Shown: piece by piece, positions 1 to 7,538 of the stretch
How positions within the stretch are numbered: the stretch's first letter is position 1
Layout of the letters: every line of letters begins with the position of its first letter
IMG/VR virus record: IMGVR_UViG_2529292734_000008
Span: 1-7,538 of that record
Origin: a virus
Taxonomy: Duplodnaviria; Heunggongvirae; Uroviricota; Caudoviricetes
DNA: 7,538 nt
Direction: 5' to 3' (one strand)
Notes under the pieces: model-generated
The model's input: only the letters and a program-made list of their open reading frames with translations
The model's database searches: none
Told to the model about the DNA's origin: nothing
Made by a program: the position numbers and the translations under genes

Positions 1-523
1 TTACCCGTTCTGTGCGGATCACTTTCAGGGCGCTGCTCACCAGTTCCAGTTGTTCTGCGCTGACTTCCCCCAGATAATCCAGCTCACCGCCACACTCCGG
101 GCAACAGCTTTCTTCAGGCTCCAGGCGGTATATCTCACGGGGGAGATGTGCCGGTAACGGACGACGATGGCGCGACTGTCGCAACTGGCGGGGAACCAGT
201 GGGTCATCCTCACGCCCACTGTAACGATCGCTTTCCTGCTCGCGTTGTTTCAGCAGGGCTTCAGCCTGTTCAACCTCACGACGCAGTTTTTCAGAACGGG
301 TTCCGAACAGCATCCGGCGCAGTTTTCTATCTGAGCCCGCAGATGCTCTATTTCTCGCTCATCTTCTTCGATCTTTTCTTCGGCACGTGCCAGTTGCAGA
401 GCGCAGGAAGGCCTCCGTCTCTTCAACCAGACTCAGTTGCTGGTCTTCCTGACGGAGGGCTTCAGCCTGCTCAGAGAGCAGCCTTTCCAGCTCAGCGATG
501 CGAATGAGGTATTTCTGACTCAT
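1..523 (-). CDS. tnpC: IS66-family transposase TnpC, N-terminal part (3' end outside window); reading frame appears interrupted
   Basis: ATG at 523-521 gives MSQKYLIRIAELERLLSEQAEALRQEDQQLSLVEETEAFLRSA. A coiled-coil segment LARAEEKIEEDEREIEHLRAQIE then lies in the +1 frame, and the long segment KLRRMLFGTRSEKLRREVEQAEALLKQ...CCPECGGELDYLGEVSAEQLELVSSALKVIRTERV returns to the ATG frame. Read straight from the ATG, the frame hits TGA (plus 359-361) after 54 codons. Confidence 0.75.
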
Positions 524-553
524 GGCCGTTTTTATAATCCGGCCCGGCGTTTT

Positions 554-904
554 TTACAACATTGTCAGTGCGTTAAGGCGGGATGTTTTTGGCTGACGCC
601 AGTCCAGCTTATCGAGGAGCATTGCCAGTTGCGAGCGGGTAATGGATATCTTACCGTCACGCACCGCAGGCCAGATAAACTGACCTTCCTCAAGGCGTTT
701 GGTGAACAGGCACAGACCATCAGCATCAGCCCACAGGATTTTAATCGTGTCTCCCCGTCGGCCACGGAAGATAAACAGGTGACCGGAGAAGGGGTTATCA
801 TCCAGCACATGCTGTATCTGCTCCCCCAGACCGTTGAAGGATTTACGCATATCAGTAACGCCGGCAACGAGCCAGATACGGGTACCTGATGGGAGTGAAA
901 TCAT
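554..904 (-). CDS. tnpB: IS66-family accessory protein TnpB (orf2)
   Basis: 116-aa ORF MISLPSGTRIWLVAGVTDMRKSFNGLGEQIQ...GHLFIFRGRRGDTIKILWADADGLCLFTKRLE, which matches the characteristic IS66 Orf2 sequence as I recall it. It sits between tnpA and tnpC. Confidence 0.85.
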   Translation of the reverse strand: MISLPSGTRIWLVAGVTDMRKSFNGLGEQIQHVLDDNPFSGHLFIFRGRRGDTIKILWADADGLCLFTKRLEEGQFIWPAVRDGKISITRSQLAMLLDKLDWRQPKTSRLNALTML

Positions 905-1338
905 CGTCCCTCCCGGTCAGCTCACGGATCAACACCGTGAGCAGCTCTGGTGAAGGATTTTCCAGCATCATTTTACCGTAATGGAATTCCACATGGCAGG
1001 AAGCTGCACAAGCAACTGATAATGCCTCCGGAGCAGGAGCATCTGTAGCACAGCGCGGGGGGTCGATAAGTTCCACTGGAACCAGAGTCGGAGAGGCCGG
1101 AAAAGATTGTGATACTGTAGGGCCTACAATAGTTGGAGGCATTCTACGAGAAAATACGTCCTTCTCTTTGCCAGAGGCGTAGCCATTTAAAAATCAGGTT
1201 GTTATCAACGCCATGTTCCCGGGCCAGTTGTGCAACATTGGCATTTGGTTTCGAAGCCAGTTCAACCATATGAAGTTTAAATTCATTAGAAAATATCCGG
1301 CGGGTTCCGGAGCGCCAGTCTGTAGGTTTATCCATCAA
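852..1338 (-). CDS. tnpA: IS66-family TnpA (orf1), present as two ORFs in different frames (1338-1144 and 1142-852); possibly frameshifted
   Basis: First ORF MMDKPTDWRSGTRRIFSNEFKLHMVELASKPNANVAQLAREHGVDNNLIFKWLRLWQREGRIFS (HTH-like) stops at TAG 1146-1144. Second ORF starts at ATG 1142 in another frame (MPPTIVGPTV...LLTVLIRELTGRDDDF...). The junction lies at the T4 run on the coding (minus) strand (A-run 1151-1154 on plus). Whether the native gene is continuous is from memory and unverified. Confidence 0.55.
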
Positions 1339-1449
1339 TAGAACTCCGTCTAATTTAGAAGGAGCTCTAATTTAGTCTGCAAGGAGCAGGTGTTACAGAC
1401 GGCATTGGCTTTACGCTTACGATTATTCATACTTCGTTTCTCCTCTTGA

Positions 1450-1839
1450 TCAGGCGGCTGCACCCGCCGTTTTCTCGTACTTACTGATAGTGATCTCGAC
1501 CTTCCCTTCCGGGATAACCGGTCCCCACTCCACCAGCATTCTTTTCACCTGACTGTCGTCTTCCCACACCCCCGCGTGGGTCAGGGCGTCAAACAGCGCC
1601 TTGTTATAGTTGTCCAGATCGCGGATCCTGTTATCCGGAGGAAACAACACGATCTCCACTGAAGCAGGTGCCGACGTTGGTTTCGGCAGACGACGTAACT
1701 GCTCAACTATTGCTGCGCACGCCGCGCTCTGGAATTTTCGCCCCGCCGCGCTTATCAGGCTCTTACCAGCAAACGCCCCTTTGTTGGGGTGTCGCCAGTA
1801 CGTGTTCACGCTGGGCGGAAAAGGCAGGATCAGCTTCAT
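1450..1839 (-). CDS. rusA: RusA-family Holliday junction resolvase (crossover junction endodeoxyribonuclease), lambdoid nin-region type
   Basis: 129-aa ORF with PPSVNTYWR...RIRDLDNYNKALFDALTHAGVWEDDSQV, resembling the RusA signature including the acidic RDLDN motif. Its ATG overlaps the stop of the upstream gene (ATGA). Confidence 0.85.
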   Translation of the reverse strand: MKLILPFPPSVNTYWRHPNKGAFAGKSLISAAGRKFQSAACAAIVEQLRRLPKPTSAPASVEIVLFPPDNRIRDLDNYNKALFDALTHAGVWEDDSQVKRMLVEWGPVIPEGKVEITISKYEKTAGAAA

Positions 1840-2162
1840 ACTTTCAGGCCCCTCTCATGTAACCAGTGGGTTGCACGCAGCCTTGCGTTTTCCTCACCGG
1901 CAAGCAGTGAGCGGATAATCCCGACCGCCTCGCTGTCGTCGTCCTTCACCGCGGTATGAAGCGTGATGCCCCGGGCCACGCCACGCTTTATCGTGATGAC
2001 GCCTTTTTTCTCCAGTGCGCGAAGATGCTCCACCGCTGCATTCACTGAACGGTATCCCAGCATGGTTGCCACCTCCTGATTGGTTGGCGGGAAGCCACGT
2101 TCTTTCTGATAAGAAATCAGCATATCCAGCACCTGCTGCTGGCATTGAGTTAACGTCGTCAT
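1836..2162 (-). CDS. LexA-like DNA-binding protein (LexA N-terminal winged-HTH domain only, no S24 peptidase domain)
   Basis: 108-aa ORF MTTLTQCQQQVLDMLISYQKERGFPPTNQEVATMLGYRSVNAAVEHLRALEKKGVITIKRGVARGITL aligns by eye with E. coli LexA residues 1-70 ([69 protein letters not shown]). The protein ends about 35 residues later with no Ser/Lys protease module. ATGA overlaps at both ends. Confidence 0.75.
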   Translation of the reverse strand: MTTLTQCQQQVLDMLISYQKERGFPPTNQEVATMLGYRSVNAAVEHLRALEKKGVITIKRGVARGITLHTAVKDDDSEAVGIIRSLLAGEENARLRATHWLHERGLKV

Positions 2163-2812
2163 GCCGCCATCTCCCTGACCAGTTTTTCTGCCTGCTGGCG
2201 AACCTGCGCCAGAAAGGCCTCACCACATGCCTCAAGTTCATCGCGCCCGATGTAGCTGATTGCCGGTCCCTTCCAGGTCTTGTCGAAAACAGCAATAGCA
2301 CCAGCGAAGAAAGCGCCTGTCGGCACCTGCTTCTCATCCTTCGGGATAAACCAGGCAGGCAGTTCAAAACCAATACGCCCGCGAATAAAAGCAATATGAT
2401 CTGCATCTTCCGGCCACCACACTTCGCTGGTGGCAGCTTTGATCAGGAAAACATAGCGCCCGCCTTTATCACGCATGGCACTGGCATGCTTCATGATGTA
2501 ACGCATGCCGGTGATGTATTGCCCCTCATGCTGGCTGGCGCGGCTGTATGGGGGATTACCAAAGGCAGCACCTTTAAGCTCCGCAAGGCGTTCTGACCAG
2601 TCATGCGCCAACGCGTTGTCTTCCGCCGTGTAATACGCAGCACATTTGGCGTTATCACCGTCAGTAAACAGATCCAGAACAAACGGGCCAAACAGAGTGT
2701 TAATTCCCCAGAAAATGTTGTCCGGCGTGCGCCACTGATCGCCCACTTCCTTCAGTTCATGGGCTGGTTTGTTCCGCAGTTCCGCCAGCGCCTGGCAATA
2801 TTTATTACTCAT
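2159..2812 (-). CDS. Phage N6-adenine DNA methyltransferase (Dam-like orphan MTase)
   Basis: ORF contains the motif-IV sequence FGNPPYS (NPPY) and an overall phage N-6-adenine MTase-like sequence. The likely start is ATG 2812-2810, overlapping the upstream stop as TAATG, with GGGGG just upstream. The ORF track extends to a GTG at 2845. Confidence 0.8.
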   Translation of the reverse strand: MSNKYCQALAELRNKPAHELKEVGDQWRTPDNIFWGINTLFGPFVLDLFTDGDNAKCAAYYTAEDNALAHDWSERLAELKGAAFGNPPYSRASQHEGQYITGMRYIMKHASAMRDKGGRYVFLIKAATSEVWWPEDADHIAFIRGRIGFELPAWFIPKDEKQVPTGAFFAGAIAVFDKTWKGPAISYIGRDELEACGEAFLAQVRQQAEKLVREMAA

Positions 2813-3306
2813 TAAGCCCCCACGTAATTCCCTGAGAGATACCACTCTTCACCTGATGCAGCCCGCTTACTGCTTTTCCGTAAACACAGTTCACGACGTG
2901 CCAGAAAATTGTTTCGTTCTGGCTGGGAGTGGCTTTCACGGAATGCCGCCATCCACACCGTTGCAGCACGACGGTATAAGCCCCTGGACTCCAGTTCTTC
3001 CGCCTGGCGGGTCAGGCACAAAATCACCCGCGGGTCGTTAGTGCCGACATAGAAATTGCGCACAGGTCTGGTTTCACGAACTGGTTGTGGTTCCGGATCC
3101 TGCGCTCTCTCAGTCAGGCGCGGGAAATGTCTGTGTGTATCTCCTTCACAACGGTGAGCCACACGCCCACTCTGACGTAACTTGCTTGCTGACTGCAGAA
3201 CGCGCTGCCGTGAGTAACCTGCAAAAGCATCCGCAATGTCTCCGGAAGTACAGCCCGGATGGGCTTCAATGAATTTCTGAACGTCATTCAAAAGACTCAT
3301 GCTCAC
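2812..3306 (-). CDS. Phage regulatory protein, winged-helix-like N-terminus with PerC-like C-terminal region (putative)
   Basis: 164-aa ORF translationally coupled at both ends (ATGA with the replication gene stop; TAATG with the MTase start). The C-terminal segment LESRGLYRRAATVWMAAF resembles the conserved core I recall for PerC/Pch-family activators; this assignment is from memory and is tentative. Confidence 0.55.
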   Translation of the reverse strand: MSMSLLNDVQKFIEAHPGCTSGDIADAFAGYSRQRVLQSASKLRQSGRVAHRCEGDTHRHFPRLTERAQDPEPQPVRETRPVRNFYVGTNDPRVILCLTRQAEELESRGLYRRAATVWMAAFRESHSQPERNNFLARRELCLRKSSKRAASGEEWYLSGNYVGA

Positions 3307-4244
3307 CCCCTGAATCCTGCCGGGATCTGGCTGTAGTCCACATTGTCGTAACTGGCTTTGAAGTACGGGTCTTCGCGTTTTTCTGTGTACGTGCTGACGG
3401 ACGGCGATAAGCGCAGGGAAAGCTCATCCCATTTTTCCCGCAGCTTCGACGGGCTGAGCACGTTACGGCACCAGAACGGATCGCGGCTGACGCGGCTGTA
3501 CATCTCGCAGATTTGTTTGTGAGTACGACCATCCTGCACACACATCAGGCGAATTTCGTTTGCCCAGGCTGTCCAGTTCGGTTCTTTGGGACGAACCACC
3601 TCGCCGTCACATTCGGCAGCCTGCTCGTACAGGGCGATGATTTTTTTCCAGAGCCACTGTGCGCAGGTCAAATCATCCTGCGTCCCCCACTGGCGCTTTT
3701 TAGGGCTGAATACAACCGCATCAGGATGGCGAGTTAAAAAATCCTGTTCAGCCGTCTGCGTGTCCGGTTGCGAAGCGTCCGGACGAGAAGGTTTTTTATC
3801 TGACGGATCATGTTTTGATTTTACTGACGGATCCCCGCCAGATTCTGACGGGTGAAAACCCGCTTTTTTGCCAGATTTCGACGCATCAAATTTTGACGGG
3901 TCAGATTTTGATGCGTCAGATTTTGACGGGTCAGAATCTGACAGTTGAGAAAATGCCGCTGCCTGAAGCTTCGCAACGTTAAGCTGATAAACATTCGACG
4001 CATTGCGGTTACCCTGGCGACGCGCCTTACGCGTTAACCAGCCTTCTGCTTCCAGCCGTGCGATAGCCGTTCTGACGGTACTCATCCCCGCGCCAATCTG
4101 ACGGGCAATGGTTTCAATTGATGGCCAGCACACACCTTCGTCATTACTGAAATCAGCCAGGCGGGCCATAATTGCCACGCTGGATAACTTCATGCCTGAT
4201 GCAGCGCAACCATCCCATACATAGCCGGTTAATTTAGTGCTCAT
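3303..4244 (-). CDS. Phage replication initiation protein (lambda O-like function): N-terminal HTH DNA-binding domain, low-complexity linker, C-terminal domain
   Basis: 313-aa ORF. The N-terminus ([70 protein letters not shown]) is typical of phage replication-initiator HTH domains. The central linker SDSDPSKSDASKSDPSKFDASKS is encoded by tandem DNA repeats. SD GAGGT lies 5 nt upstream of the ATG. Confidence 0.8.
   Translation of the reverse strand: MSTKLTGYVWDGCAASGMKLSSVAIMARLADFSNDEGVCWPSIETIARQIGAGMSTVRTAIARLEAEGWLTRKARRQGNRNASNVYQLNVAKLQAAAFSQLSDSDPSKSDASKSDPSKFDASKSGKKAGFHPSESGGDPSVKSKHDPSDKKPSRPDASQPDTQTAEQDFLTRHPDAVVFSPKKRQWGTQDDLTCAQWLWKKIIALYEQAAECDGEVVRPKEPNWTAWANEIRLMCVQDGRTHKQICEMYSRVSRDPFWCRNVLSPSKLREKWDELSLRLSPSVSTYTEKREDPYFKASYDNVDYSQIPAGFRG
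3798..3950. repeat. Putative replication origin: about 8 iterons with 10-bp core TGAYGSRTCA inside the replication-initiator gene
   Basis: Core copies at about 3801, 3825, 3846, 3880, 3895, 3910, 3925 and 3940, the last four at exact 15-bp spacing (GATTT-TGACGGGTCA). Flanking T-rich tracts at 3791-3797 and 3864-3869. The position matches the lambda arrangement where ori lies within the O gene linker. Confidence 0.6.
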
Positions 4245-4592
4245 GACCGACCTCTATTTCCCTGAATTTACGACGAAACTGTTCGAGCGGACTGAAGCAT
4301 TCATGCTCATAACCTTCGCGGAGGTAGATAACCCGTTGTGTTTCCGGCTCCCAACGAATGACTCTGACGGGCACTCCGTAGTGATCTTTGAACCAGCGGT
4401 TAACTTGTCGCAAAGGACTGTCTCCTTCTGCCGGTTGAAATCACCCACAGCCCACTCTGCAAAGCTGTGGGTTACAATTTCCCTGTCACCTGGTACATTC
4501 ACTGCATAGCAATATTCCACCTTCGCTTTTCCACCCGGAACAGGAAGCGCAATCAGTTGCGAGCGACGGTAGTGTGTTGTTAAACTGTTCAT
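4234..4592 (-). CDS. Hypothetical phage protein, apparently frameshifted (N-terminal part in one frame, protein-like C-terminal part in another)
   Basis: The track ORF 4592-4254 starts [51 protein letters not shown] and then degenerates into a Ser/Thr-rich tail. From 4440 down to TAA 4236-4234 a second frame encodes [68 protein letters not shown]. The start overlaps the upstream gene stop as ATGA. Confidence 0.5.
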
Positions 4593-4957
4593 GCGTTAGT
4601 TTCTCCACAGTCACGACACGCCACGGCGCCCGGAGCTGCACACTCGCGGGCGTCATTACTTTCTGAAATGCAAAAAATTTTGTAGACCAGTGCTGCATGC
4701 TCCTGCAGCTTCGAAATTGAGAGGTAGAGCTCGTCATTAATTGCTGTCTTCTCATGCGGTTCCACTACACCGTCTTCGATTGCTGAACGAATCTGTTTTG
4801 AATAACTGCCGATCTGTTCAATGACTTCCAGCAGACGCTGGTTAATATCGGCGTTGTCCACATCCTCGACGTCAGGAAGAGACACAAAGACGCCATTTGC
4901 AGACTGCGCCACAGCATCAGCAATGAAGTGAGTTCCACCAGCACGTTGCAAAATCAT
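4589..4957 (-). CDS. Hypothetical phage early protein (122 aa, predicted helical)
   Basis: ORF with ATG at 4957. Its stop overlaps the downstream gene start (ATGA at 4592-4589). It lies between the cII-like and replication genes in the same operon. No family recognised. Confidence 0.55.
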
Positions 4958-4978
4958 TGCCCATCCCAGCGGGAAAAT

Positions 4979-5185
4979 CTAATCGCCATCGGCACGAAGG
5001 CGGTTAAATAATGCGTTCTCTGTTACATCCAGCCAGTCAGCAGCTTCAGCGTAACCCCCCGGCAACGCTGCGATAGTTTTTCTGACAGCTTTCACGTACC
5101 ACTCAGGCTGTTTGTCTACTTTCCAGTGATGCTTACCCACGGTTAGCCTCATCGTTCTGTGGTTTCTGTTAATCGATTTATCCAT
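4979..5185 (-). CDS. CII-like / YdaT-like HTH regulatory protein (putative), ending at an amber codon
   Basis: HTH-like segment GYAEAADWLDVTENALFNRLR at the C-terminus, in the position of lambda cII (immediately downstream of cro). The start is uncertain: ATG 5185 overlaps the cro stop, with alternatives at 5197 and 5152; none has a strong SD. The ORF ends at TAG 4981-4979. Confidence 0.45.
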   Translation of the reverse strand: MDKSINRNHRTMRLTVGKHHWKVDKQPEWYVKAVRKTIAALPGGYAEAADWLDVTENALFNRLRADGD

Positions 5186-5378
5186 TAGATTTTTCATAAA
5201 GCTCAGGTTTAAATGGCAACCGTCCGCAAGTTCTATATGCAGCTTCTGCTGCACGTCCTTTTGGAATTAACTGGCCCGGACGGTTTCGCCACTGATAAAC
5301 GGCTTCAGTTGTTATGCCGAAAAAAGCAGCAACTTTCTCAATACTGCCGAAGTAGCTTTCGATATCGTCAGTTGTCAT
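5178..5378 (-). CDS. Cro-like transcriptional regulator (small HTH protein)
   Basis: 66-aa ORF MTTDDIESYFGSIEKVAAFFGITTEAVYQWRNRPGQLIPKGRAAEAAYRTCGRLPF with an HTH motif (VAAFFGITTEAVYQWR). SD GGAGGG lies just upstream of ATG 5378. It is transcribed divergently from the repressor gene. Confidence 0.7.
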   Translation of the reverse strand: MTTDDIESYFGSIEKVAAFFGITTEAVYQWRNRPGQLIPKGRAAEAAYRTCGRLPFKPELYEKSNG

Positions 5379-5388
5379 ACGCCCTCCA

Positions 5389-5455
5389 AACTAAGTTTTA
5401 TTAGATGCTAATTACAAATCTATCTTTGGTCAATAAAAACTAAGATTACTTAGTA
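5389..5455. promoter_or_regulatory. Divergent immunity control region (OR-like): two 14-bp inverted-repeat operator candidates and a PR-like promoter for cro
   Basis: CTAAGTTTTATTAG (5391-5404) and CTAAGATTACTTAG (5440-5453; perfect 5-bp arms CTAAG/CTTAG). On the minus strand, -35 TTGACC (5433-5428), a 17-bp spacer and -10 TAGCAT (5410-5405) precede the cro ATG. The first operator overlaps the -10/+1 region. Confidence 0.55.
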
Positions 5456-5475
5456 ATTAAAGAAATGGTGCTCCT

Positions 5476-5985
5476 ATGGAAACGGTTGGTCAGCGTATAA
5501 AAGCTCTGAGAAGAGTTACCAGAACGTCCCAGAAAGAATTGGGTAAATTTTGTGGAGTAAGCGACGTTGCTGTGGGGTACTGGGAGAAAGACATCAATAC
5601 CCCTGGTGGGGAGGCACTTTCGAAATTAGCGAAGTTCTTCAATACGTCAATAGATTACATTCTTTATGGTGCTGAGTTTGAAGGCAAACTCGTCACAAAC
5701 ATGCGCAGAGTTCCTGTAATATCGTGGGTTCAGGCTGGGCAGTTTACTGAGTGCAGGGCAGCAGAAGTGTTTAGTGAAGTGGACAAGTGGGTAGATACAT
5801 CATTAAAGATTGGTGATAACTCATTTGCATTAGAGGTTAAAGGTGACTCCATGACTAACCCTAATGGCCTCCCAACAATACCAGAAGGCGCAACAGTGAT
5901 TGTAGATCCAGATGCAGAACCTCGTCATGGAAAAATAGTCATCGCTCGACTTGATGGAACAAACGAAGCTACAGTAAAAAATTAG
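5476..5985 (+). CDS. CI-type prophage repressor (XRE HTH + LexA-like S24 peptidase domain), truncated by a frameshift; remaining C-terminal codons continue in another frame to 6101
   Basis: N-terminal HTH (QKELGKFCGVSDVAVGYWEKD) and S24 catalytic Ser motif GDSM. The ORF ends ...ARLDGTNEATVKN*. The adjacent frame encodes KKLVIDGPQKFLVPLNPRYPNIPINGNCLIIGVVKGVQYEL* (to TAA 6099-6101), which matches the lambda CI C-terminus pattern [35 protein letters not shown]. The break is in the A6 run 5976-5981. Confidence 0.85.
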   Translation: METVGQRIKALRRVTRTSQKELGKFCGVSDVAVGYWEKDINTPGGEALSKLAKFFNTSIDYILYGAEFEGKLVTNMRRVPVISWVQAGQFTECRAAEVFSEVDKWVDTSLKIGDNSFALEVKGDSMTNPNGLPTIPEGATVIVDPDAEPRHGKIVIARLDGTNEATVKN

Positions 5986-6115
5986 TCATCGATGGCCCTC
6001 AAAAGTTTTTAGTGCCATTAAATCCTCGGTATCCCAACATCCCTATCAATGGTAATTGCCTTATCATTGGTGTAGTCAAAGGAGTTCAATACGAACTCTA
6101 AGACCTCTCTTCTCT

Positions 6116-6183
6116 AACTAAGGCACCGAACTAAGAAAAGTTTGGTGTTTTCTCTTGCCATAATAACTAAGTTAAGTTAGATT
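6116..6183 (+). promoter_or_regulatory. OL/PL-like element: repeated AACTAAG half-sites, a 14-bp operator-like site and a sigma70-like promoter pointing rightward
   Basis: AACTAAG at 6116-6122, 6129-6135 and 6165-6171. CTAAGTTAAGTTAG at 6167-6180 matches the OR motif. -35 TTGCCA (6155-6160), 17-bp spacer, -10 TAGATT (6178-6183). Confidence 0.45.
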
Positions 6184-6261
6184 TTATGTCAAAGATAACG
6201 AACAGGCAGGACGCCCACGAAGTAGCCGCCTGGGGCATATGAAGTCCAGGATGATTCGTTA

Positions 6262-6290
6262 GCAACAAAAAAGCGCCCTACAGGACGCTT
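6262..6290 (-). terminator. Intrinsic terminator-like hairpin with U-tract, minus-strand sense
   Basis: Minus-strand RNA would read AAGCGUCC-UGUA-GGGCGCUU followed by UUUUUUGUUG (stem 6271-6290, A-run 6267-6272 on plus). On the plus strand the same hairpin has a C-A mismatch and no downstream U-tract. Confidence 0.5.
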
Positions 6291-6291
6291 A

Positions 6292-6303
6292 GCTCTTTAA
6301 CAA
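6292..6303 (+). promoter_or_regulatory. boxA-like antitermination element (12/12 match to the rrn-type boxA core GCTCTTTAACAA)
   Basis: GCTCTTTAACAA at 6292-6303, immediately after a hairpin and about 45 nt upstream of the ATG of the first plus-strand gene downstream of the PL-like promoter. A weak AU-rich hairpin CAAGTAACTGATAACTTG follows at 6319-6336. Confidence 0.45.
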
Positions 6304-6348
6304 TCTGGTCCCCATCAACAAGTAACTGATAACTTGAGGAGATGTGAA

Positions 6349-6555
6349 ATGCACAAAACAGAACCCAAAATCGTCGCGCCTGGCTACACAGATGAGGAAA
6401 TTTATGAGTGGATGACAAAGAAGCTGGCAGCTATAAACCAGCTTCGTGAAGTGCTGTCTTATCGACAGGAAACAATAGACTCCTTAAAAAAACTGGATCA
6501 GGAAATCACGGTTTTATCACAGGATGTTACTTTAGATATTGTGCAGACAAATTAG
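6349..6555 (+). CDS. Hypothetical small protein (68 aa), first gene of the rightward PL-like transcript; AT-rich accessory gene
   Basis: ATG at 6349 preceded by a strong SD GAGGAG (6336-6341). The track ORF begins at an earlier in-frame ATG at 6334. The translation MHKTEPKIVAPGYTDEEIYEWMTKKLAAINQLREVLSYRQETIDSLKKLDQEITVLSQDVTLDIVQTN is predicted helical and acidic. No family recognised. Confidence 0.6.
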   Translation: MHKTEPKIVAPGYTDEEIYEWMTKKLAAINQLREVLSYRQETIDSLKKLDQEITVLSQDVTLDIVQTN

Positions 6556-6961
6556 GATCCCATTCATTTTCGTCAAAATCATCAAAGTGATGAATTTGTG
6601 ATCTCCAGTCTCGATAATCTAAAAATTTCTGGGCGGTTACGCTTATTTTATCAAGTGTGAGTTCATCCTGAATTGAAAGAAGAAGTTCATCAAATTTCAT
6701 CTCATTAATCTGTTTTGGCATCCAGTGATGCTTCATCAGAATAAGGTGAACCAGAGCCTTTTTCCCATTCAACTGATTATAGGGAGTGCCGAATTTCTTC
6801 CGGTGCTCATGTAAGACAAGGTCCAAAAGAGTAAGTAATGTTGCCCTTGATTCAACTTTGCTTATTTCGACTGATGACACTACCCCACTGATTTCAATGC
6901 CCCGATACTTTCCAACATTTTCACAGTGGGATTTGTACAGCGTATAGATATTACCGGACAT
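6527..6961 (-). CDS. Hypothetical protein (144 aa), moron-like accessory gene transcribed convergently to the PL-like operon
   Basis: ORF with SD AAGGA (revcomp of plus 6962-6975) upstream of ATG 6961. The region looks AT-rich compared with the flanking phage backbone. Its 3' end overlaps the 68-aa gene by 29 bp. No family recognised. Confidence 0.7.
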   Translation of the reverse strand: MSGNIYTLYKSHCENVGKYRGIEISGVVSSVEISKVESRATLLTLLDLVLHEHRKKFGTPYNQLNGKKALVHLILMKHHWMPKQINEMKFDELLLSIQDELTLDKISVTAQKFLDYRDWRSQIHHFDDFDENEWDPNLSAQYLK

Positions 6962-6976
6962 TTCTTTTCCTTTTGC

Positions 6977-7028
6977 GTTGTTGGGGATAACCAGATTAAC
7001 CGAATCCTTGTTGTTGGGGAATAACCAG
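6977..7028. repeat. Two 18-19 bp direct repeats GTTGTTGGGGA(A)TAACCAG separated by about 15 bp, in the upstream region of the 144-aa gene
   Basis: Copy 1 at 6977-6994 and copy 2 at 7010-7028, nearly identical, located 16-67 bp upstream of the minus-strand ATG at 6961. Confidence 0.5.
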
Positions 7029-7245
7029 GTCCACCTCGCCTGATGTGGCTAAAAGCAGGCACATAACAGCTAAGTATTTTCAACCAGAGAGAATCCTTAG
7101 CGTTGTGGTGAATGCGGCTCAGCGCACGCGGGTTAAGGTTGAGGCTGACAGTCGACCTTCTGTGGATACCCACCCGCCTGGTGTGCAACCTTCGCCAGGC
7201 ACCGGGAGGCACCCGGCACCACAACTTTATGCTGTGTGTAGTCTT

Positions 7246-7292
7246 GGCGGTACCAGCTTGTACCCTTGCTTCCGGCTGGTACCGTCCTTTTT
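7246..7292 (+). terminator. Rho-independent terminator-like hairpin (10-bp perfect stem CGGTACCAGC/GCTGGTACCG, 17-nt loop, T5 tract)
   Basis: Stem 7248-7257 pairs with 7275-7284, followed by TTTTT at 7288-7292 on the plus strand. Confidence 0.6.
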
Positions 7293-7297
7293 ACAAA

Positions 7298-7379
7298 ACA
7301 GAGAAGAGCATCACCGGACGACGGGCTCATAACCCAATCCATCCGGGCGGCAGTCACCGCAGGTGTTCTTCTCTGTTTT
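7298..7379 (+). other. Long-range helix (about 15 bp including G-U pairs) enclosing about 49 nt, followed by a UUU run; structured leader element
   Basis: 7298-7312 pairs with 7362-7376 (ACAGAGAAGAGCATC / GGTGTTCTTCTCTGT). It lies about 50 nt upstream of the next gene's ATG. Confidence 0.35.
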
Positions 7380-7429
7380 GTGGAGAAACTAACCGACCTT
7401 GCAGGGTCGATATGATGAGGAGCAGCAAA

Positions 7430-7538
7430 ATGGCTAGCGAACGCAGTACTGATGTGCAGGCATTTATCGGGGAGCTGGACGGCGGCGTATTTGAAACCAA
7501 AATCGGCGCAGTTCTCAGTGAAGTCGCTTCCGGTGTGA
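7430..7538 (+). CDS. Hypothetical protein, 5' partial view (continues beyond window end)
   Basis: ATG 7430 with SD GAGGAG (7417-7422) 8 nt upstream. Translation MASERSTDVQAFIGELDGGVFETKIGAVLSEVASGV... is open to the window end. No family recognised. Confidence 0.55.
   Translation, partial: MASERSTDVQAFIGELDGGVFETKIGAVLSEVASGV

Follow-up and report, generated by a model that had tools for sequence, protein, structure and literature searches.

Single-base frame breaks in an IS66-bounded prophage contig of Escherichia coli DEC14B are probably consensus errors

The virus record IMGVR_UViG_2529292734_000008, analysed here over its whole length of 7,538 bp (the window), is the complete contig AIHL01000003.1 of assembly GCA_000250435.2 from Escherichia coli DEC14B, as established by exact-protein matches of its truncated tnpC and tnpA products and a check of identity; the strain name is that given in a paper in which AIHL01000073.1 was used. 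It joins one end of a copy of the insertion sequence (IS) ISEc47, a member of the IS66 family, to the early and immunity region of a lambdoid prophage. Five single-base indels lie in its genes, two in tnpC and two in tnpA of the IS and one in the prophage repressor gene cI, and three private transitions are found besides. The five indels are private to AIHL01000003.1 and absent from near-identical sister assemblies. We regard them as most likely consensus errors in the contig and not mutations of the organism, and the three transitions are probably errors as well.

For checking each frame break, the IS part of the window was aligned to intact ISEc47 and the prophage part to the corresponding region of E. 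coli D6. The IS part was 99.6% identical to annotated ISEc47 across 1,420 bp, from which it departed by four 1-bp indels and two transitions. The prophage part was 99.9% identical to D6 and showed one indel (A7 to A6 in cI) and three substitutions (2534, 2888 and 4981). An exact protein search with the N-terminal 53 aa of the ymfL product, which retrieves carriers of the same nonsense codon, found the sister assemblies. AIGT01000006.1 has the same IS with the same junction to the prophage and differs from the 7,538 bp at only eight sites, namely the five indels and the three transitions (134, 448 and 2534). At all six difference sites within the IS it reads as intact ISEc47, and its tnpA is intact at 144 aa. 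AIHM01000024.1 and the Logan contig of ERR4899355 are without the IS, and differ from window positions 1421-7538 at 2534 and in the A-run of cI (A7) only. The sisters themselves agree perfectly, AIHM01000024.1 with ERR4899355 over 14,213 bp and AIGT01000006.1 with ERR4899355 over 10,018 bp (100% in both cases). Because the nonsense codon in ymfL, the perC R140L exchange (2888) and the IS insertion are common to sister assemblies, these are real and inherited.

A sequence-only reading of the window had reported two frame breaks in tnpC, a possible break at an A/T4 run in tnpA and one at the A6 run of cI. All of these exist in the record. In tnpC one T is gained and another lost, which leaves a 54-aa open reading frame (ORF; 523..359) before the original frame is regained (313..1); by exact-protein look-up, this frameshifted product occurred in no other contig among the indexed assemblies. 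The tnpA break is an A3 to A4 change, and a second indel near the end of the same gene, the loss of a C, had been overlooked. The cI break shortens the product from 208 to 169 aa.

The composition and location of the private differences set them apart from the natural divergence of the locus. Their ratio of indels to substitutions is 5:3, versus 1-2:72 when a sister is compared with the prophage of sequence type 131 (ST131) and ISEc47 with ISEc43 (Fisher p = 4e-5). Six of the eight fall inside the IS, which makes up 19% of the contig (binomial p = 9e-4), and so do four of the five indels (p = 5e-3). Error density in the IS part (1-1420) is ~0.4%, and the unique prophage part holds two private differences in 6.1 kb. 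The breaks had been described as occurring at short homopolymers, and for the deletions this goes beyond chance: all three lie in runs of at least four bases, which account for 7.1% of window bases (p ~4e-4). Both insertions copy an adjacent base, and one of them sits at a single T. Homopolymer context does not by itself tell real slippage from sequencing error.

AIHL01000003.1 belongs to a multi-contig whole-genome shotgun draft in an accession series dated 2012. We take this assembly to be a draft of the DECA collection (Hazen et al., J Bacteriol 2012). For a sibling project run at the same centre in that year, 454 Titanium 3-kb paired ends were assembled with Celera 6.0, and by analogy with it the DEC14B platform was probably pyrosequencing (454). 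We infer that the indels arose through errors in the reads or in their consensus. A multi-copy IS bounds this short contig on one side, and the error density in the IS part suggests that few or misaligned reads went into the consensus at the repeat. The pattern resembles homopolymer and consensus indel errors in draft assemblies, both those of the pyrosequencing type and those at repeats or contig ends, in its 1-bp gains and losses at or beside runs, in being private to one assembly, in the apparent pseudogenes within intact operons and in its concentration where a multi-copy repeat meets the end of the contig. The underlying biology would be an intact ISEc47 after nucleotide 10 of kilA-N, an inherited nonsense codon in ymfL and an intact cI.

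Several observations weigh against consensus error. All three private substitutions are A:T to G:C transitions, and together with 1-bp indels these are also a signature of mismatch-repair deficiency. Within the IS, runs of one to five bases are affected and the T6 and G6 runs are correct, unlike the classic length-dependent homopolymer pattern. A contig from an unrelated metagenome (ERZ28751884 contig_2823 in ENA) carries a ~96% identical IS66-family copy (positions 5186-5377) with the same T3 to T4 insertion in tnpA, equivalent to the plus-strand A3 to A4 change of the window, and an identical 63-aa product; either the variant is real or the two copies coincide by chance at a site prone to error. 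One otherwise clean contig, SRR2070766, has A6 in cI, so that this form is possibly a real allele elsewhere. Finally, no errors are seen over 10-14 kb of the sisters, which apparently come from the same project; the fault must therefore lie with this contig or this assembly and is no general effect of the platform. As for the runs, the longest in the IS are unaffected and a T1 gained a base, a pattern that fits a low-depth or misaligned repeat consensus better than a systematic length-dependent miscall. The sparing of T6 and G6 while short runs are affected also argues against real slippage, because slippage favours the longest runs too.

It is unlikely that DEC14B acquired the eight private differences by real mutation in its very recent history, whether as a mismatch-repair-deficient mutator lineage or during long storage. 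A:T to G:C transitions and single-base indels in runs form the mutational spectrum of mutL and mutS strains. The window is alike in that its substitutions are exclusively such transitions and every indel is of one base at or beside a run, and the A6 allele in the clean contig of another strain would agree with a mutational origin. However, a genome-wide process would not put six of eight changes into a 1.4-kb IS, and one private change per kb would add up to ~5,000 over the genome. Indels make up a larger share than even in mutator spectra, the longest IS runs are unchanged although a single T gained a base, and the tnpC indels recur in no other indexed assembly.

The breaks had also been called typical of homopolymer-length errors in long-read assemblies. 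Sequencing or assembly error is supported for the private indels, but the long-read part of that claim is not, and an origin in an unpolished Nanopore or PacBio assembly is very improbable. Such an origin would account for single-base indels at runs, and A6 is indeed read at this cI tract in error-laden assemblies of long-read appearance. Against this, the source contig measures 7.5 kb and breaks off within an IS, a long-read assembly would cross a 2.5-kb IS, the sibling project used 454, the draft dates from 2012, and only one of the 13 runs of at least six bases in the window is affected.

The other explanation offered by the sequence-only reading, recent decay of a cryptic prophage, fails for the five indels and holds for other lesions. 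Inherited, lineage-wide pseudogenisation of the prophage together with a dead IS copy is extremely improbable as their cause, and for the five indels it is refuted: the sister that carries the IS at the same position has none of them, two further near-identical assemblies also lack the cI indel, and the ratio of indels to substitutions is incompatible with natural divergence at the locus. Real inherited lesions do exist. Independent assemblies share the nonsense codon of ymfL and the kilA-N insertion of ISEc47, both of which are such lesions and ordinary biology, and a gene annotated as frameshifted near 7105-7415 is common to all relatives. Just as remote is functional recoding, by programmed frameshifting in ymfM and its overlapping DUF4222 gene or in the IS genes, or by a slippage-prone switch at the A7 tract of cI. 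The two-frame layout of ymfM and DUF4222 is kept out to Klebsiella phages and the A6 allele occurs on at least five backgrounds, as recoding would lead one to expect, but in all lineages examined a separate Shine-Dalgarno sequence and start codon serve the DUF4222 gene, many phages have this gene on its own, and a conserved slippery heptamer is lacking; the reference ISEc47 requires no frameshift, and most A6 carriers are visibly error-laden assemblies.

For annotation, the tnpA, tnpC and cI genes of the record are to be regarded as intact genes that the assembly has miscalled and not as pseudogenes, and neither a repressor-less or decaying prophage nor a dead IS should be inferred from these breaks. 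Exact-protein look-up of truncated products offers a cheap route to sister assemblies, by which errors can be separated from mutations without reads.

Table 1. Features and private differences in the 7,538-bp window (positions as in AIHL01000003.1).
Feature	Position	Strand	Remark
ISEc47 (IS66 family), one end of element	1-1420	-	ORF list and similarity search
tnpC, 5' part (IS66-family DDE transposase)	1..523	-	Runs off left contig end; two indels
Transition T->C, synonymous in tnpC	134	.	Private
Lost T in tnpC, T5->T4	323-326	.	Relative to ISEc47 and AIGT01000006.1
Extra T in tnpC, T1->T2	394-395	.	Relative to ISEc47 and AIGT01000006.1
Transition T->C, tnpC K26E (TTTC->TTCC)	448	.	Private
tnpB (IS66 accessory protein), intact, 116 aa	554..904	-	Alignment to ISEc47
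tnpA, 144 aa in reference ISEc47, 63 aa here	901..1335	-	+A at 1151-1154; -C at 908-910 just before stop
Lost C in last tnpA codons, C4->C3	908-910	.	3 nt upstream of tnpB start codon; private
Extra A in tnpA, A3->A4	1151-1154	.	Not in AIGT01000006.1
IS terminal inverted repeat (GTAAGCGTAAAGCC...)	1400-1420	-	Read directly from sequence
Early/immunity region, e14/SfII/SfIV-like lambdoid prophage	1421-7538		Similarity search
kilA-N, first 10 nt (ATGAATAATC)	1421-1430	-	Rest disrupted by IS
Transition A->G, synonymous in phage Dam methyltransferase gene	2534	.	Private
DUF4222 gene, 59 aa, other frame within 3' half of ymfM	4413..4234	-	Pfam E = 2.6e-19
ymfM, intact, 112 aa	4592..4254	-	No frame break
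ymfL (Phage_CP76 family), 183 aa in relatives	4589..5140	-	In-frame TAG at 4979-4981 (CAG->TAG, Q54*)
cI-type repressor (HTH_3 + Peptidase_S24), 208 aa in relatives, 169 aa here	5476..6101	+	Pfam; alignments
A6 run in cI (A7 in sisters)	5976-5981	.	Encodes K168-K169; lost A

The intact cI product has the architecture of the lambda CI/LexA-type S24 repressors, with an N-terminal helix-turn-helix, a C-terminal S24 domain and a Ser/Lys dyad. When aligned to the C-terminal domain of lambda CI, its K168 matches the catalytic K192 and the GDSM motif is also in register. The A6 form ends ...TVKN-stop, so that K169 becomes N and residues 170-208 are lost. An identical 169-aa product was found in 11 contigs from at least five distinct backgrounds. 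Most A6 carriers have further 1-bp indels, namely six replicate assemblies of one strain (16-22 gaps each), SRR030603 and ERR4592251. The A-tract is clearly an error hotspot, and A6 may sometimes be a real mutation. In the window, error is more likely than mutation, because the tract is A7 in three near-identical sisters and the contig has four other private indels. That the A7 tract is a real slippage hotspot, at which prophages repeatedly switch from a cleavable 208-aa to a truncated 169-aa repressor, is improbable, since most A6 carriers are error-laden and the near-identical sisters of the window have A7; if true, such switching would alter prophage inducibility.

The six replicate assemblies (GCA_0532915xx-0532917xx, JBRXB*, single-contig) apparently represent one strain. 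They differ from one another by many 1-bp indels, with phage and chromosomal genes split differently in each, and the cI tract is A6 in every one; they illustrate what genuinely error-laden assemblies look like. The label 'LexA family protein (x2)' in some complete genomes was considered as a possible split cI and rejected, as it refers to two different genes and cI is intact there with A7. Three operator-like palindromes of the form ACTAAG-N4-CTTAGT flank cI (5390-5405, 5439-5454 and 6166-6181), where 0.2 would be expected by chance. For this immunity type, they probably represent the operators OR and OL.

The IS shows the IS66-family order tnpA (HTH_Tnp_1), tnpB (TnpB_IS66) and tnpC (LZ, zf, DDE_Tnp_IS66). 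The contig stops before the DDE part of tnpC, and the fragment present matches Pfam LZ_Tnp_IS66 and zf-IS66. The copy agrees with ISEc47 and ISEc43 in gene order, in the ATGA overlap between tnpA and tnpB and in its terminal repeat (GTAAGCG...). The junction with the prophage is at 1420/1421, with ISEc47 similarity stopping at ~1422 and prophage similarity beginning at 1421. Only one terminal repeat lies within the contig, and the second end and the 8-bp target duplication fall outside it. The insertion after nucleotide 10 of kilA-N is real and inherited, being common to the window and AIGT01000006.1. The junction had no match in a similarity search of genome, metagenome and viral contigs, and no IS copy nearer than intact ISEc47 (99.6%) was present in 5,426 complete E. 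coli genomes. AIHL01000003.1 and AIGT01000006.1 both break off within the IS, after ~1.42-1.44 kb of it and 18 nt from each other, and these near-coincident contig ends suggest the same assembler behaviour at the repeat.

The prophage part shares its gene order (cI, cro, ymfL, ymfM, O-like, perC/yfdN, dam, lexA-like, rusA, kilA-N) with the early and immunity regions of the e14, SfII, SfIV and vB_EcoS-569R4 type, at 98-99.9% identity. Identity to ST131 prophages and to phage vB_EcoS-569R4 is 98.9%, and the ymfM region is almost identical to that of e14 in K-12. The lineage of the window differs from these regions in the ISEc47 copy in kilA-N and in Q54* of ymfL; the cI frameshift is a further difference that is probably not real. 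Q54* divides ymfL into ORFs of 53 and 122 aa and is a real inherited substitution that the sequence-only reading had overlooked. The allele is present in AIHM01000024.1, AIGT01000006.1 and the Logan contigs of ERR4899355 and SRR099102. A methylation-related miscall at 4981, where the G/A change removes a GATC, was rejected on the grounds that the allele is common to four independent assemblies. Prophage copies of the ST131 type have an inherited C6 to C7 frameshift in ymfL, in the tract matching window 5055-5060. The gene was therefore inactivated independently in two lineages.

A further break had been claimed at an A3 run in a '117-aa gene'. This gene is ymfM, an intact ORF of 112 aa, which had been joined to the overlapping DUF4222 gene. 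The window differs from finished K-12 MG1655 by 2 nt in ymfM and has the same two-frame layout. The DUF4222 gene has a strong Shine-Dalgarno sequence and its own start (AAGGAG-7nt-TTG) and is annotated by RefSeq in strain D6. The same layout, again with a separate Shine-Dalgarno sequence and start codon for DUF4222, was found in Klebsiella phages (~75% amino-acid identity; GGAG-5-ATG) and in mEp390, and DUF4222 stands alone in many other phages. No X XXY YYZ slippery heptamer was present in the overlap of ymfM and DUF4222. Programmed -1 frameshifting from ymfM into DUF4222 was rejected because this heptamer is lacking; the presence of a separate start and the stand-alone occurrences speak against it as well. 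Two apparent fusions were also dismissed. In mEp390 a single-piece tblastn match suggested one, but the alignment crosses stop codons and the layout there is again two-frame, and in Salmonella phage 118970_sal3 a single ORF arises solely through a shift inside DUF4222. When the translations are compared by eye with those of the Klebsiella phages, conservation lies in the DUF4222 frame, at roughly 88% versus 40% for the ymfM frame. In the published study of filamentation by ymfM, the whole ORF ('cell division inhibitor YmfM' of K-12) was cloned, and the embedded ORF is unmentioned.

Two other parts of the prophage region deserve comment. At ~7105-7415 on the plus strand, the Prokaryotic Genome Annotation Pipeline (PGAP) lists a 'frameshifted hypothetical protein' in D6, YZ3E2001, p11B and strain 4433, and the window has the same sequence. 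This stretch has a high GC content and inverted repeats, and an Rfam scan gave no match in it or anywhere else in the window. Instead of a pseudogene it may be a non-coding region. The O-like replication gene contains four to five direct repeats that resemble iterons and recur every 15 nt (CAGATTTTGACGGGT and variants) at 3872-3946, with weaker copies at 3795-3853. By analogy with lambda, these presumably mark the phage origin.

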